This document shows, in pieces, positions 160-9,840 of a stretch of 64,000 bases of DNA. The notes under the pieces are model-generated. The model made no database searches. It had not been told where the DNA came from and saw only the letters and a program-made list of their open reading frames with translations. The translations under genes and the position numbers were made by a program. Where the stretch lies: positions 486,722 to 550,721 of the forward strand of contig JAHFJN010000001.1 of assembly GCA_023245865.1 (NCBI GenBank). The letters are read 5' to 3'. This stretch comes from Candidatus Peribacteria bacterium. Its GTDB lineage: Bacteria; Patescibacteriota; Gracilibacteria; Peribacterales; Peribacteraceae. Each line of letters starts with the position of its first letter. Position 1 is the stretch's first letter.

Positions 160-942
160 ATGATCGACAGTCACTGTCACTTGGCCGACGCAGCGTTCGA
201 TGCTGATCGCGAGGCGGTGGTTACGCGAGCGCACGAAGCAGGCATCGAAACAATGATCACCATTGCAGATAGCATTTCCGAAGCCGAGAAATGCGTGCAG
301 ATTGCAGAGAAATATGATCACATTTTTTGTTCAGTTGGAGTCCATCCCCACAATGCGAAAGATTGGCAGAAGGGCGATGCTGCGAAGCTCACCGCGATGA
401 CGAAGCGATCCAAAAAAGTCCGTGCCATCGGCGAGATCGGCCTCGATTACCACTACAATCATTCAGCGCAAGATGTACAGCGGGGGGTCTTTTTGGAACA
501 ACTCACCCTCTCCCGTGAGCTGGGGCTCCCCGCGGTCGTTCATTGCAGAGAATCGATCGATGATATCCGCACGATCGTCCAAGAAGTCGAACCCCTCCAG
601 ATGGTCCTGCACTGCTGCACGGAAAAGTGGGAGGACATCGAATGGCTCCTCGAGCTTGGACATCTGCTCAGTTTCACAGGAATCGCGACCTACCCCAACG
701 CCGAAGTCATCCGAAACGTAATCAAGCACTGTCCCCTCTCGAAGATGATGATCGAAACAGATGCCCCGTATTTAGCGCCCATTCCACATCGAGGAAAACG
801 CAATGAACCAGCCTTCATCGTCGAAGTCGCCAGACTGATCGCGAAGATCAAGAACACCTCGCTCGAGGAAGTCGAAGCACAGACGACGAAGAATGCAGTG
901 GTGTTTTTTGGATTGTCGAATGGTGCCCTCGACAGGAATTGA
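160..942 (+). CDS. tatD: TatD-family metal-dependent hydrolase/DNase
   Basis: 260-aa ORF with N-terminal DSHCHL motif and TatD-like sequence throughout. Confidence 0.9.
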   Translation: MIDSHCHLADAAFDADREAVVTRAHEAGIETMITIADSISEAEKCVQIAEKYDHIFCSVGVHPHNAKDWQKGDAAKLTAMTKRSKKVRAIGEIGLDYHYNHSAQDVQRGVFLEQLTLSRELGLPAVVHCRESIDDIRTIVQEVEPLQMVLHCCTEKWEDIEWLLELGHLLSFTGIATYPNAEVIRNVIKHCPLSKMMIETDAPYLAPIPHRGKRNEPAFIVEVARLIAKIKNTSLEEVEAQTTKNAVVFFGLSNGALDRN

Positions 943-995
943 ACCTGTATTCCCGGCTTCGGAGGCCAGTGGTCTATCCGTTAACCTACGAGGGC
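921..995 (-). tRNA. tRNA-Arg (anticodon CCG)
   Basis: Hand-folded cloverleaf: acceptor GCCCTCG/CGAGGGC, anticodon loop CUCCGAA, T-loop TTCAATT, encoded CCA. Overlaps the last 22 nt of tatD. Confidence 0.9.
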
Positions 996-2297: not shown

Positions 2298-2570
2298 ATG
2301 CCCCACTACGTCTACCTTGCACGCTGCAGTGATGGCTCACTCTACGCAGGCACATGCATCGACCCCGCAGCACGCGAGGCGAAGCATAATACGGGCAAGG
2401 GCGCCAAGTACACACGCGGGCGGGGGCCGGTACGAATCATCTACATCAGAAAATGTCGCAGTTTACGTGATGCACGAAAGAAGGAAATGAAAATAAAAAA
2501 AATGCAGAAGCAAGAAAAGGAATTACTGATTTTGAAATTTCATGGAGGGGGCCATCGCCACGGGGGGTGA
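2298..2570 (+). CDS. GIY-YIG nuclease-domain protein (UPF0213-like)
   Basis: N-terminus YVYLARCSDGSLYAGTC...AREAKHN matches the GIY-YIG motif. The last ~6 codons run into structured repeat copy A. Confidence 0.8.
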   Translation: MPHYVYLARCSDGSLYAGTCIDPAAREAKHNTGKGAKYTRGRGPVRIIYIRKCRSLRDARKKEMKIKKMQKQEKELLILKFHGGGHRHGG

Positions 2571-2716
2571 AGGGGAAGCCCTGTCCTGCTAACAAGCAAT
2601 GACGAAACGAACTGCGAAGCCCTGGAGCAGTTCGTGAGGAATCACAGGGCGGGTGGAGGAGGATTGGCGATGGTGGCTTTCTTTGGTCCTTTCTTGTGCG
2701 GTAGACAAGAAAGGAC
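2552..2716 (+). repeat. structured repeat copy A (candidate ncRNA)
   Basis: Helices P1 2552-2560/2665-2673, P2 2578-2584/2644-2650, P3 2608-2615/2627-2634, 3' hairpin 2686-2697/2705-2716. Homologous to 4091-4246. Confidence 0.7.
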
Positions 2717-2741
2717 AAGAAAATCTCTGTACACTACCTCC

Positions 2742-3953
2742 ATGAAAGTCGCTCTCGTTCATGAACTCCTCACAATGCGCGGAGGGGCGGAGAAGATGCT
2801 GAAGATCCTCAGTGAGATGTTCCCGGAGGCCCCGATCTACACGCTCCTCTACGATGAAGCGAAACTGGGCGATTGGTTTGCGCGTGAACGCGTTCGCCCA
2901 AGCGTTCTCCAGCCATCTCGCAGCTCGCAGCTCATAACTCGCAGCTTCGCATTCAATCATCATTTTTATCTGCGCAAATTCCCCCGCGCTGTGGAGGCAT
3001 GGCCCTTCGATGGTTCGTGGTTCGACTACGCTCACCATGACAAGCTCACCATGACACGCGAATCATTTGATCTGGTGATCAGCAGCAGCTCCGCATTCAC
3101 GCACGGGATTATTACCAATGGTCACCCCAAACACCTCTGCTACGTCCATTCCCCCGCCCGCTACCTCTGGGATCGGACGCACGACGTATTGAAACGAAGC
3201 AGCAAAGGATTGCTCGGTCCACTCAGGCGCGCGTACCTGGAGCGCACTTTCCACAAACTTCGGGTCTGGGACACCGAAGCCGCAGACCGCCCCGATATGC
3301 TCCTGGCAGCCTCCAAAGAAGTACAACGTAGGATCGAACTCTACTGGAGACGCGAGAGTGAGGTCGTGTATCCGCCGATTGAGGACTGCTGGAGCGAGCA
3401 GCGACCAGCGACAAGCGAAGAGCATTCTACCCGCTACCCGCTACCCGCTACCCGCTACTTCTTAGTTGTCTCCACCCTTGTCCCCTACAAACGCATCGAC
3501 CTCGCGATCGAGGCCTGCAATCAAATCCATGTACCTCTCCTCATCATCGGCGAGGGGCCGGATAGAAGGAGATTGGAAAAATTAGCCGGACCGACTGTCA
3601 CATTCCTCGGGTATCAATCAGAGGAAGAAGTGCGCTGTGCGTATGCAGGAGCAACCGCAACGCTGTTCCCAGGTGATGAAGACTTCGGATTGGTCCCGCT
3701 CGAGTCGATGGCATGCGGAACACCGGTGATTGCATTCAAGAGCGGAGGCGCGCTTGAGACCGTGATCGAAGGTCAGACCGGTACGTTTTTTGAGCACCAA
3801 ACCCCCGAAAATCTCGCAGAGAAAATACGGCAGTTTGATCACAAGAACTACTCAAGCGAAAAATGCAGAGAGCAGGCAAATAAATTCAGCAGATTGCAGT
3901 TCGAACAAAAAATATATTCAGCAGTTGAAAGGGTGATGAATCTGCCATCGTGA
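2742..3953 (+). CDS. GT4-family glycosyltransferase
   Basis: MKVALVHELL... start at the internal ATG of the 2634 ORF. C-terminal EDFGLVPLESMACGTPVIA (E-x7-E) motif. Confidence 0.9.
   Translation: MKVALVHELLTMRGGAEKMLKILSEMFPEAPIYTLLYDEAKLGDWFARERVRPSVLQPSRSSQLITRSFAFNHHFYLRKFPRAVEAWPFDGSWFDYAHHDKLTMTRESFDLVISSSSAFTHGIITNGHPKHLCYVHSPARYLWDRTHDVLKRSSKGLLGPLRRAYLERTFHKLRVWDTEAADRPDMLLAASKEVQRRIELYWRRESEVVYPPIEDCWSEQRPATSEEHSTRYPLPATRYFLVVSTLVPYKRIDLAIEACNQIHVPLLIIGEGPDRRRLEKLAGPTVTFLGYQSEEEVRCAYAGATATLFPGDEDFGLVPLESMACGTPVIAFKSGGALETVIEGQTGTFFEHQTPENLAEKIRQFDHKNYSSEKCREQANKFSRLQFEQKIYSAVERVMNLPS
3428..3458 (+). repeat. perfect heptanucleotide tandem repeat (TACCCGC x4 plus TAC) inside the GT CDS
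   Basis: Read directly from the sequence; translates as RYPLPATRY. Confidence 0.95.
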
Positions 3954-4090
3954 GTACAAAATTTGTGCTAGACAGTTTTCCACATTCGAGGTCCCGGTGT
4001 CTTGCGTCGCGCGCGGACAGAGGTATTCTGATTGTGGAGAGGAGACGCTAGGAAATGTAAACCAATATTGTCATTCATTATTTTGGAGGC

Positions 4091-4246
4091 CCGCCGCCAC
4101 GGGGGGTGATGGGGAAGCCCTGTGCGAAGCTTCATGACGAAACAGACGCCGAAGCCTTGGAGGCGTCTGTGAGGAATGACAGGGCGAGCAGAGGAGGATT
4201 GGCGGCGGAGAATTTTTGGTTCTTTTGTTTCGTCTGACAAAAGAAC
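4091..4246 (+). repeat. structured repeat copy B (candidate ncRNA)
   Basis: P1 4091-4099/4200-4208, P2 4117-4123/4179-4185, P3 4143-4150/4162-4169, 3' hairpin 4219-4228/4237-4246. Lies in the convergent gap between the GT gene and ruvB. Confidence 0.7.
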
Positions 4247-4249
4247 AAA

Positions 4250-5290
4250 CTAGAACATCCCCTGCTGCCCCTGCGGCAGCTCCTTCCCCAATTTCTCATA
4301 GGTCTTCTTCGTCGCCATCCTCCCCTTCGGAGTTCGCTGCAAATAGCCTTGCTGCATCAGGAACGGCTCGTAGACATTCTCAATGGTTTCTTCTTCTTCG
4401 GCAAGGATCGCAGCGAGAGTCGAGAGTCCCACCGGCCCACCGGAAAATCCATCAATAAGAGTAGAGAGCAATTTGCGATCGGTTGCATCGAGCCCTTCAC
4501 GATCGATATCGAGCGACGCGAGCGTCTGCTCCACACACGGAAGATCAATGGAAGAAATACTGCTCACATGTGCGAAATCACGGATCGAACGCATCAAGCG
4601 GTTTGCGATACGCGGAGTTGCGCGGCTGCTGGTGGCTATCCGATCGGCGGCCTCGGGCAGGAGCGTGACCCCGAGGATACGCGCGGAGCGACGGACAATC
4701 GACTGCATCTCGGGGATTTCATAAAACATCAGTTTGAATTGATGCATGAATCTATCGCGTAAGGGGGCGCTCACGCTCCCCGCCTTCGTCGTCGCACCCA
4801 CGAGCGTAAAGGGTTTCAGGTTGAGCCGCACCGAGCGTGCGGTCGGGCCTTTCCCAATCATGATATCGAGCACGAAATCTTCCATCGCGCCGTAGAGCAC
4901 CTCTTCGACGACGGGTCGCAGTCTGTGGATCTCATCGATAAAGAGGACATCACCAACCCCGAGATTGGTGAGCAGCGCCGCCAGATCGCCCGGCTTCTCG
5001 ATGGCGGGGCCTGATGTGACTCGCACTTGAGCCCGCATCTCTTCCGCAATGATATGGGCGAGGGTGGTTTTGCCAAGGCCGGGCGGTCCATGGAGGAGCG
5101 TGTGGCCAAGAGGCTCGGTGCGAGATCGCGCCGCCTGCATGTGGATGACGAGGTGTTCTTTTATTTTTCCCTGACCGATGTATTCTCTGAGCAACCTCGG
5201 TCTGAGAGTCTCCTCGAGTTCGTCCTGCCGCCCCTTTTCCTTCACAGGCTGAAGGACAGGACTCGCCCGTGAGGTTCGCGACAGAGACAC
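4250..5290 (-). CDS. ruvB: Holliday junction branch-migration helicase RuvB
   Basis: GPPGLGKTTLA Walker A, DEIHRL, RuvB C-terminal domain. Start set at GTG 5290. ATG 5374 abuts the divergent ATG (CATATG) in AT-rich non-coding-looking sequence. Confidence 0.9.
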   Translation of the reverse strand: MSLSRTSRASPVLQPVKEKGRQDELEETLRPRLLREYIGQGKIKEHLVIHMQAARSRTEPLGHTLLHGPPGLGKTTLAHIIAEEMRAQVRVTSGPAIEKPGDLAALLTNLGVGDVLFIDEIHRLRPVVEEVLYGAMEDFVLDIMIGKGPTARSVRLNLKPFTLVGATTKAGSVSAPLRDRFMHQFKLMFYEIPEMQSIVRRSARILGVTLLPEAADRIATSSRATPRIANRLMRSIRDFAHVSSISSIDLPCVEQTLASLDIDREGLDATDRKLLSTLIDGFSGGPVGLSTLAAILAEEEETIENVYEPFLMQQGYLQRTPKGRMATKKTYEKLGKELPQGQQGMF

Positions 5291-5334
5291 GAGTTTTAGT
5301 CTAGCAGAAGCCTTAGAATCCAAGAAATGAGATA

Positions 5335-5363
5335 TTGACTTTTTATACAAAATAGTATTAAAT
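5335..5363 (+). promoter_or_regulatory. sigma70-like promoter (TTGACT-17-TTAAAT) for the 5375 ORF
   Basis: Hexamers read by eye; the -10 ends 11 nt before the ATG. Confidence 0.4.
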
Positions 5364-5374
5364 ACTTCTACCAT

Positions 5375-5977
5375 ATGTCGACCCGTTTGAAAATCATCGT
5401 CACGCTCGTCCTGCTCCTGCTGCTTGGTGGGCTTGGCGCTGCGGATTACTTCCTCTCGGGTGACGAGTACGCAGCGAAGCTCATAGAAAATCCTGACGCA
5501 TCGAGCGCATCCTCTTCTGAGAGCTATATACCGACCGTGGGCACGCAGAAGCAAAGCGGACCGGATGTCCTGAATGTGATCACTGCAGCCGGATACACGA
5601 CGCAGAAAAGTGAGGAGCTCAGCTTCCTTGCGCAGATCGCCGGCAGCGGTGCCAGTGTTTCTTCGGCAATCATTCTCAAAAATGACGATCGGGCGGGGTC
5701 CGTCACGTGGACCGATTCGCGTAACGTCAAGAATCAATTTATTGCCCTGAAGGAAGCGCTGCTCGGAGCATTTTCATCCAGAGTGTCGGACTTGCGCGAT
5801 GAGACGAAAGTGGAAACCGACTCCCCGGTCCGCAATATCCTCAGCTTCTCTGACCCTGCTTTAAGCGAAGAACGCCTCGTCTTTGTGCGGGTCCGCGAGC
5901 GCCTGTACGAATTCCACCTCGCGAAGGGGAAGGAGGACATGATGATAGGATTGATTGAGGAAATCACCACCAAGTAG
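5375..5977 (+). CDS. hypothetical membrane-anchored protein
   Basis: 200 aa with an N-terminal hydrophobic helix IIVTLVLLLLLGGLGA. No family recognised. Confidence 0.6.
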   Translation: MSTRLKIIVTLVLLLLLGGLGAADYFLSGDEYAAKLIENPDASSASSSESYIPTVGTQKQSGPDVLNVITAAGYTTQKSEELSFLAQIAGSGASVSSAIILKNDDRAGSVTWTDSRNVKNQFIALKEALLGAFSSRVSDLRDETKVETDSPVRNILSFSDPALSEERLVFVRVRERLYEFHLAKGKEDMMIGLIEEITTK

Positions 5978-9537: not shown

Positions 9538-9840
9538 ATGCCGACGGGTCCTGACATGACCATTCTCAAACAAACAAGCAACTGTGATTTTGTCACGGGC
9601 AAGATCAATGCAGCCTGCATTCCGGAATTTATCGGACACCTTGTCGTTGTGGTGTTTCAGGCGGTCTCGGTATTTTTCCTCATCAATGTGATGTACGCTG
9701 GGTATCAACTTGCGATCTCTCACATGAGCGAGGGTGACAAAGGCGCGGGAAAAGAACGGATCCGGTGGTCGATCATCGGTCTGGTCGTCTGCGTCTGCAC
9801 CTTCCTCATTCTTGAGCTCGTGCTCAGTAAAATCCTCTGA
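9538..9840 (+). CDS. TrbC/VirB2-like T4SS pilin-type small membrane protein
   Basis: 100 aa. Two Cys (C..x11..CIP), then two hydrophobic helices separated by a charged loop, as in CPR T4SS_pilin proteins. No signal peptide. Confidence 0.55.
   Translation: MPTGPDMTILKQTSNCDFVTGKINAACIPEFIGHLVVVVFQAVSVFFLINVMYAGYQLAISHMSEGDKGAGKERIRWSIIGLVVCVCTFLILELVLSKIL

Follow-up and report, generated by a model that had tools for sequence, protein, structure and literature searches.

A candidate low-copy, insertion-type structured RNA element in Candidatus Peribacteria

Two similar sequences stand on either side of a glycosyltransferase (GT) gene in 64,000 nucleotides (nt) of Candidatus Peribacteria DNA (contig JAHFJN010000001.1, positions 486,722 to 550,721; hereafter the window). 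An earlier note, made from the letters alone, described them as two copies, here A and B, of a structured element that brackets the gene. The locus raises a simple question: what are these repeats, and which moves, the gene or the repeats? The favoured reading, with a probability of about 0.55, is that each copy is a member of a previously undescribed low-copy structured RNA element of insertion type. The element would measure ~180–220 bp and belong, as far as seen, to Candidatus Peribacteria/Peribacteraceae. Judged from sequence, the family is clade-restricted and low in copy number, with a covarying four-helix fold followed by a 3′ hairpin. It is polymorphic for insertion, has no coding potential and lies outside Rfam. 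Comparison loci are cited below by working labels (L007 and the like).

Two copies, their relatives and the shared fold

A read-through of positions 2300–4500 and a repeat finder located a same-strand repeat pair at ~2549–2723 and ~4088–4249. The copies had been placed at 2552–2716 and 4091–4246 in the same orientation; they are homologous and both lie on the plus strand. Sequence reading, repeat finder and covariance model all agree with this. Conserved-block searches of the window match copies A and B alone. A two-sequence covariance model scores them at 153 and 147.4 bits and finds no other match there. Relatives came from metagenomes, where at least 120 loci matched a pattern drawn from the outer junctions (GGGGTGANGGGGAA...GAGGAGGA). 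Among the matches listed, the covariance model picked six distinct members: L069, L059, L060, L026/L070, L031 and L091. Rebuilt from 8 distinct sequences, the model gives the members 72.8–131.9 bits (copy A 131.9, copy B 124.7) and all else at most 30.7 bits over ~0.96 Mb, a gap of more than 40 bits. The named hosts are all Peribacteria: Candidatus Peribacteraceae (L069), Ca. Peribacteria RIFOXYC2_FULL_55_14 (L026/L060), Ca. Peribacteria (L031) and Ca. Peribacter riflensis (L091). The relatives of the window's RuvB place its own organism among them. One locus, L129, was considered as a weak member and rejected. Its region is coding-like, and its score of 30.7 bits is owed solely to the pattern by which the locus had been chosen. 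A further observation concerns L082 (555–601, minus strand). It carries a 47-nt hairpin with a P1-like stem and a loop like J1/2 plus J2/1 (GGGGUGAGGGGGAAGAGGAC...), at 22–23 bits, and may represent either a pared-down form of the element or a coincidence brought up by the search pattern. A P3-domain pattern gave no match in metagenomes. Two patterns run against viral contigs gave 9 chance matches and then none, and blastn of phage and plasmid collections returned no relative.

The earlier note could match the fold to no known riboswitch or ribozyme class and proposed an Rfam check. This judgement stands, as no Rfam 15 family, with riboswitches, ribozymes, sRNAs and HEARO/omega-RNA-type motifs included, matches the window copies or the homologues. 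At the gathering threshold the window yields five tRNAs only. The interval 2400–4400 at E ≤ 10 yields noise (at most 19 bits, against cut-offs of 39–90), and seven homologue loci at E ≤ 1 yield nothing at the element. A literature search on Peregrinibacteria/Patescibacteria RNA motifs, bacterial ENE-like triplexes and the conserved 13–16-mer found nothing relevant.

The core of the element is built from four helices. P1 closes off a large internal loop rich in purines; the three-way junction with P2a and P3 is borne by P2. About 45 unpaired nucleotides of the core are conserved and purine-rich. The invariant junctions are (C)ACG-GGGGGUGAAGGGGAA in J1/2, GAANCCUUGNA in the P3 loop L3, GAGGA in J3/2 and GAGGAGG in J2/1. 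Inspection by eye adds a C-G / G.A / A.G motif that extends P3; its closing pair covaries, A-U in the window and G-C elsewhere. Helices P1, P3 and the 3′ hairpin had been folded correctly by hand, and their differences between A and B are all compensatory. P1 holds 2 double compensations, and P3 holds 4 around its 11-nt loop. Twelve of the 48 paired columns differ between the copies, all as compensatory doubles, compared with 7 of the 61 unpaired columns (P2a excluded). Each copy folds better than 200 of 200 shuffles on either strand (z −3.4 and −3.6). Part of the conserved blocks that the earlier note took for single-stranded is in fact paired: GCCCUGU/ACAGGGC forms P2, and UGGCG is the 3′ strand of P1. 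P2 escaped notice since A and B carry it unchanged; it covaries in the homologues. P2a, likewise new, is a small variable hairpin of unrelated sequence in 5 lineages.

The six further Peribacteria homologues both uphold and extend the proposal that the fold is under selection. Standard pairs fill 97.2% of the pair cells in the 8-sequence alignment, and in 18 of the 24 pairs both partners change. Its covariation score of 0.70 was reached by none of 500 shuffles, which gave 0.21 ± 0.035. This model-fitted alignment is biased towards the model; the margin is large. When the 3′ partners are slid by 1–3 columns, pairing falls to 30–45%. The fold is kept among hosts with loci of 44 to 62% GC, and core lengths run from 112 to 133 nt, differing by non-multiples of 3. 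Read on the plus strand, the helices contain 4 G.U pairs against 1 C.A. A plus-strand RNA is weakly favoured as the functional form, because G.U exceeds C.A four to one and the junctions are purine-rich.

Filled and empty sites

The clearest comparison is with L007, a sister species with 97% amino acid identity in RuvB and a nucleotide identity of about 88%, or ~84–91% over aligned blocks. It has the same STAS–GIY-YIG–GT–RuvB order and carries neither copy. Site B there consists of 15 nt in place of ~190 nt (4060–4249). At site A the end of the GIY-YIG gene overlaps the GT start. These empty spacers contain no significant remnant of the element. Alignment to them also sets the length of the inserted unit, ~2531–2733 for A and ~4060–4249 for B. 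The ~165 nt first proposed was therefore too short, as the unit includes an AT-rich leader with a G-run. In all homologues an AT-rich stretch and a G-run lie immediately 5′ of P1.

The GT gene had been described as a cassette between direct repeats. This is not supported. In a more distant relative, L008–L011 (RuvB 76%), extra genes interrupt the GIY-YIG, GT and RuvB series without changing its order, and the element is missing there too. GT segments that align to L007 by blastn are 87–91% similar, much like the flanking genes at 84–88%. Because L007 and L008 carry GT between GIY-YIG and RuvB without repeats, these alignments identify GT as a resident gene, and the repeats as the part that comes and goes.

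A third filled site lies in the genome of L144/L069, where 224 nt, including an antisense element, separate the NUDIX stop from the RecF start. The same gap is 2 nt in L141 (RecF 78%) and 9 nt in L143 (RecF 66%). Insertion is the parsimonious account here, since two relatives share the tight junction. With the two window sites this makes three filled/empty comparisons at orthologous positions. On this comparative evidence the element behaves as a discrete insertion unit, present or absent at orthologous intergenic sites and in either orientation. Relatives of the L026 locus (2-hydroxyacid dehydrogenase 84%, 77%, 76% and 67% identical) lack the element; their downstream genes differ, so they are not clean empty sites. 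In one Peribacteria relative (L146/L147, 6961–8409) a gene-less gap of ~1.45 kb without an element copy was observed downstream of the 2-hydroxyacid dehydrogenase.

Six genomic contexts are known, and they have no gene family in common. The element lies upstream on the same strand in 3 cases: before GT4 (copy A), before MFS and PMT_2 glycosyltransferase genes (L026/L060) and before a DsbA-like gene that follows WecG (L091). It is convergent or antisense in 3 or 4: RuvB (copy B), NUDIX/RecF (L069), TrmB (L059) and probably an M16 peptidase (L031). Glycosyltransferases occur in three contexts, a post hoc observation that may reflect plasticity of envelope loci rather than function. Beyond A and B, neither sequence profile nor covariance model detected a copy in the window, and the same holds for ~216 kb of Peribacteria DNA fetched for other reasons; within this sample the element is low-copy.

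The two window copies are old relative to their sites. Identity between A and B is 54% in the leader and 61% in the tail; between window and L007, non-coding spacers reach 87–93%. Since A and B are so much less alike than these spacers, they would have split long before the two species did and would not stem from recent local duplication. The simplest account of the sequences is two separate insertions from diverged sources.

The 3′ module and the competing explanations

Every member continues 3′ of P1 with a short linker, a U-tract, 1–3 nt and a hairpin whose 5′ arm is pyrimidine and whose 3′ arm is purine. The hairpin stems are fully Watson–Crick in 7 of 7 despite differing sequences. The U-tract, also present in 7 of 7, has a parallel Hoogsteen-compatible match to the purine arm (U on A, C on G). 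The compatible runs are 6, 4, 8, 7, 5, 7 and 3 long, each flush above a lower stem of 4–6 bp. Together they make 40; shuffling the 12 nt upstream gives 20.2 ± 3.1 (0 of 5000). In L069 (UUUUCUUU versus UUUCUUUU) and L059 (UUUUCUU versus UUCUUUU), the two members in which mirror and direct repeats can be told apart, the U-tract mirrors the 5′ arm and does not repeat it directly. A mirror is what a fold-back triplex requires, while an alternative Watson–Crick hairpin would not favour it. The geometry of the module is consistent with a U.A-U/C+.G-C triple helix, which we infer from sequence only.

The following mechanism is proposed. (i) The plus-strand RNA would comprise a G-rich 5′ end, a 123-nt core and a 3′ module of U-tract and pyrimidine/purine hairpin. 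(ii) The core would adopt a tertiary fold and bind a protein or other partner needed for the persistence or spread of the element. (iii) The 3′ module would fold into a U.A-U/C+.G-C triplex-capped hairpin, protecting the 3′ end of the RNA or of an upstream mRNA fragment. (iv) The window copies would be co-transcribed with GIY-YIG and GT, copy A as an intercistronic and copy B as a 3′-terminal structure; co-transcription with the neighbours is suggested because only 25 nt lie between hairpin A and the GT start.

Several points weigh against the reading as an insertion-type RNA element. The family is known from at least 8 sequences in ~5 lineages, and its range and per-genome copy number rest on these. 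GTDB species genomes searched with a strict three-block pattern from copies A and B gave 4 matches, as many as chance predicts, and the covariance model accepted none of them; that pattern is too specific to the window subfamily, which bears on any claim about distribution. Random insertion does not explain two copies within 1.5 kb at so low a density. Local targeting, or selection on the GIY-YIG–GT transcript, is a possible reason why both stand at GT. Mobility is argued from the three filled/empty comparisons, of which the two in the window depend on one sister genome. Integrase, transposase and reverse transcriptase are not among the genes called within 10 kb of the window locus and L144. 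The genes expected beside a transposon-encoded guide RNA (omega RNA, IS110 bridge RNA) or a retron msr/msd, namely TnpB/IscB, IS110 recombinase and reverse transcriptase, are likewise absent from the calls within ±10 kb in L001 and L144 and beside the other members. P1 apart, no terminal inverted repeats were found. The three junction pairs, whose spacers have diverged, show no target-site duplication. P1, the sole long inverted repeat, sits inside the inserted unit and shows covariation from member to member. The strand and the ends of the RNA are themselves deduced. In the 3′ module, the U-tract could also bind the purine arm antiparallel through Watson–Crick/G.U pairs (runs of 6–9), and in 4 lineages it can pair with an A-rich trailer.

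Other accounts must explain the same conserved core. A fixed trans-acting small RNA (sRNA) gene in one or few copies, transcribed from a promoter of its own within the AT-rich leader and with its 3′ end at the hairpin, would attribute the patchiness to relocation, duplication and loss. Low copy number, strong long-term structural conservation across hosts with loci of such different GC content, and placement in either orientation relative to the neighbours would all suit such a gene, as would the AT-rich −10-like hexamers found a few nucleotides 5′ of the G-run in most members. Presence and absence are nonetheless too precise for ordinary sRNA relocation, with genes 2–9 nt apart in two relatives and two empty sites for the window. 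A scan for consensus promoters and terminators gave nothing convincing, and the hairpin of copy A can be no efficient terminator unless GT is silent, because the GT start is only 25 nt away. This account is considered unlikely. A cis-regulatory RNA (riboswitch, attenuator or mRNA-stability element) acting on GT, and elsewhere on other envelope genes, is a doubtful proposition. Copy A does lie in the 5′ untranslated region of GT, the L026/L060 copies stand upstream of MFS and PMT_2, and the L091 copy stands between WecG and the DsbA-like gene on the same strand. The junctions are aptamer-like in their conservation, and the purine junctions might offer the pyrimidine tail an alternative partner. 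A riboswitch or leader is argued against because contexts and orientations are inconsistent: the RuvB, NUDIX/RecF, TrmB and probably L031 copies are convergent or antisense. No downstream gene family is constant, the hairpin lacks a U-tail, and start codons follow at 8 to more than 50 nt with no fixed spacing. Orthologous GT genes, moreover, manage without the element.

The many invariant nucleotides in the junctions of a compact core, including the tandem G.A-type motif that extends P3, would also suit a new self-cleaving or catalytic RNA class that processes its host transcripts. Like many small ribozymes, the core is tied to an insertion-type element. The chance of this is slim: the sequences match no Rfam ribozyme even at E = 10, and hand-threading onto hammerhead and hepatitis delta virus (HDV)-like topologies gave no fit. 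Catalysis would be compatible with the insertion-element reading, as the function of its core. The position of one gene between direct repeats suggested a DNA-level element instead, namely folded single-stranded recombination sites (attC-like, or the ends of HUH transposases) at the borders of an exchangeable GT cassette. Covarying stems with some fixed unpaired bases are attC-like, and insertion polymorphism would be expected. This explanation has become very improbable. GT is syntenic without the repeats and has diverged no differently from its flanking genes, gene calls within 10 kb include no integrase or transposase (window, L144), and the single copies elsewhere bracket no gene. The ~45 conserved unpaired purines, the three-way junction and the strand-specific U-tract are unlike attC or IS200/IS605 ends, and G.U pairs outnumber C.A. 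By eye no RYYYAAC/GTTRRRY pair is present at the unit ends; no attC model was applied. Arrays in which genes and elements alternate beside an integrase, or strains with other genes between A and B, would favour this reading, and neither was seen. Least credible of all is a small protein-coding gene or fragment. Copy B contains a 42-codon open reading frame (ORF) from 4107/4110 to ~4237, and across copy A the frames of GIY-YIG and GT coincide, parted by a single UGA (2568–2570). Yet no frame is open in all members, the varying core lengths are out of step with codons, and the stem substitutions are compensatory and non-synonymous. The comparison of frames and lengths across members effectively refutes the small-ORF reading.

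The insertion-type RNA element has its closest behavioural analogues in ERIC/IRU, Rickettsia palindromic elements (RPE), Correia/NEMIS and MITE-like units (MITE, miniature inverted-repeat transposable element). Such units measure 100–200 bp, carry no gene of their own, lie in intergenic or gene-boundary positions in either orientation and are present or absent in close relatives. They can fold as RNA and are conserved within clades. Most are long imperfect palindromes or terminal inverted-repeat pairs, usually in tens to hundreds of copies. The present element shares with ERIC, RPE and Correia its small size, lack of a gene, gene-boundary position, free orientation and presence or absence at orthologous sites. 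It departs from them in its low copy number, multi-helix core, three-way junction, ~45 conserved unpaired nucleotides and stems that covary between lineages. Insertion polymorphism is as in MITEs; unlike MITEs, no terminal inverted repeats or target duplication are seen. Set against MITE, REP and ERIC, its density is 2 copies in 64 kb and 0 in ~216 kb of other Peribacteria DNA, a count that includes no whole genome. A covariation-supported fold, conserved junctions and restriction to one clade also recall orphan structured non-coding RNA motifs (Rfam ‘Gene; sRNA’ or unknown function), most of which, in contrast, keep their gene context or synteny; no Rfam 15 entry corresponds. Integron attC sites and gene cassettes share the direct repeats on both sides of one gene and a stem structure kept more than its sequence. 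They differ in that here no integrase is called, the gene is resident, single copies occur elsewhere and the fold is complex. Riboswitch aptamers are similar in size, in multi-helix junction and in invariant purine-rich junction nucleotides. They differ in having a constant downstream gene and orientation, which is not seen here, and an expression platform (an intrinsic terminator, or a hairpin that hides the ribosome-binding site beside a start codon), for which the conserved hairpin here is not a clearly recognisable candidate.

The 3′ module is likened to triple-helix modules of other RNAs: the MALAT1/MEN-beta ENE with its genomically encoded A-rich tract, the PAN ENE, and the U-rich triplexes of telomerase RNA and the SAM-II and preQ1-II pseudoknots. 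Triplexes of this kind generally have a parallel U-rich third strand, with C opposite G-C. Common to both would be the succession of U-rich strand, short turn, U-rich Watson–Crick strand and purine strand (A-rich, one G), the third-strand C opposite a G-C pair, and a third strand parallel to the purine strand. The module is nevertheless a simple one-hairpin fold-back, with no double U-rich internal loop clamping a tail and no pseudoknot. It has 3–8 possible triples and Watson–Crick alternatives, is bacterial (from the candidate phyla radiation, CPR) and is known from its letters.

Map of the locus and the wider setting

The gene layout described in the earlier note agrees with Pfam and gene calls: copy A starts in the last GIY-YIG codons and ends 25 nt before GT, and copy B lies in the convergent gap before ruvB. 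The parts of both copies and their neighbours are listed in Table 1.

Table 1. Parts of copies A and B and neighbouring genes (window coordinates).
Feature	Position	Strand	Remarks
Copy A leader	2531..2551	+	AT-rich, closing with G-run GGAGGGGG (2544-2551); within final GIY-YIG codons; 5′ limit approximate, from alignment to the L007 empty site
Copy A core	2552..2674	+	123 nt; covariance-model match
Copy A P1	2552-2560/2665-2673	+	
Copy A J1/2	2561-2577	+	CGGGGGGUGAAGGGGAA
Copy A P2	2578-2584/2644-2650	+	
Copy A P2a hairpin	2587-2598	+	
Copy A J2a/3	2599-2607	+	
Copy A P3	2608-2615/2627-2634	+	loop L3 2616-2626, GAAGCCCUGGA
Copy A J3/2	2635-2643	+	
Copy A J2/1	2651-2664	+	GGGUGGAGGAGGAU
Copy A U-tract	2678..2684	+	UUUCUUU; mirrors the hairpin 5′ arm; candidate triple-helix third strand; 6 Hoogsteen-compatible positions in a row, directly on top of a 4-bp lower stem
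Copy A 3′ hairpin	2686..2716 (arms 2686-2697/2705-2716)	+	pyrimidine arm GUCCUUUCUUGU, loop GCGGUAG, purine arm ACAAGAAAGGAC; 12/12 Watson–Crick
Copy B leader	4060..4090	+	AT-rich, closing with GGAGGC; 5′ limit from the L007 empty site
Copy B core	4091..4209	+	119 nt; covariance-model match
Copy B P1	4091-4099/4200-4208	+	
Copy B J1/2	4100-4116	+	
Copy B P2	4117-4123/4179-4185	+	
Copy B P2a	4124-4130	+	weak
Copy B J2a/3	4134-4142	+	
Copy B P3	4143-4150/4162-4169	+	loop L3 4151-4161
Copy B J3/2	4170-4178	+	
Copy B J2/1	4186-4199	+	
Copy B U-tract	4213..4217	+	UUUUU
Copy B 3′ hairpin	4219..4246 (arms 4219-4228/4237-4246)	+	GUUCUUUUGU / loop UUCGUCUG / ACAAAAGAAC; end 3 nt from the RuvB stop codon
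Small GIY-YIG nuclease gene	2298..2570	+	90 aa; Pfam PF01541; 3′ end inside copy A
Family-4 glycosyltransferase (GT) gene	2742..3953	+	403 aa; Pfam; start 25 nt past copy A hairpin
ruvB	4250..5374	-	convergent with GT and copy B; stop at 4250

Some observations concern the neighbours themselves. The UGA stop of GIY-YIG (2568–2570) falls in the invariant block GGUGAAGG of copy A. GIY-YIG, copy A and GT share one reading frame that is broken solely by this codon, probably a coincidence. A selenocysteine insertion sequence (SECIS), or read-through of the in-frame UGA at 2568, was considered and discarded, the other members giving no support. The GT gene contains tandem repeats at 2917–2951, 3006–3056, 3393–3418 and 3427–3458. 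Three have 7-nt units with 100% matches (CTCGCAG ×4.9, AGCGACC ×3.7 and CTACCCG ×4.6), and there is a 14-nt unit ×1.9. The repeats fall in two stretches that do not align to L007, whose GT has 377 aa against 403 aa. By their sequence, the heptamers could allow frame switching by slippage and thus phase variation of a surface-glycan enzyme. The open frame of ruvB extends over 4250–5737 (minus strand) and so reaches 121 codons further upstream than the called start, making 495 aa instead of 374 aa. The extension is probably untranslated, because Pfam matches start only at residue 178 of the long form. A tRNA gene (924–995, minus strand) overlaps the last 19 nt of a TatD-family ORF (160–942, plus strand). 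Clusters of small T4SS_pilin (PF18895) genes occur near the locus (L001, 2674–4264 and 16797–17099, the latter at window ~9538–9840), and 23S_rRNA_IVP genes occur in related loci (L143, 18175–18582; L152). CPR genomes typically carry both gene types, and neither has an evident tie to the element.

The genomes of CPR bacteria are tiny and leave little space for non-functional DNA. To our knowledge, almost nothing is known of non-coding RNA in these organisms. The furthest interpretation is a new small mobile CPR RNA. Its purine-rich core would be catalytic or protein-recruiting, as the spread of the RNA would require (for instance by way of an RNA intermediate); a two-tier G-quadruplex may form in the G-rich internal loop; and the 3′ triplex cap would be the first bacterial counterpart of MALAT1/ENE. 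As a whole this is speculative and is regarded as improbable. More generally, a conserved fold combined with gain and loss at individual sites would mean either a new functional RNA or a new propagation route for a small RNA. If the 3′ module does form a triple helix, a mechanism of eukaryotic and viral RNAs would be extended to bacteria.

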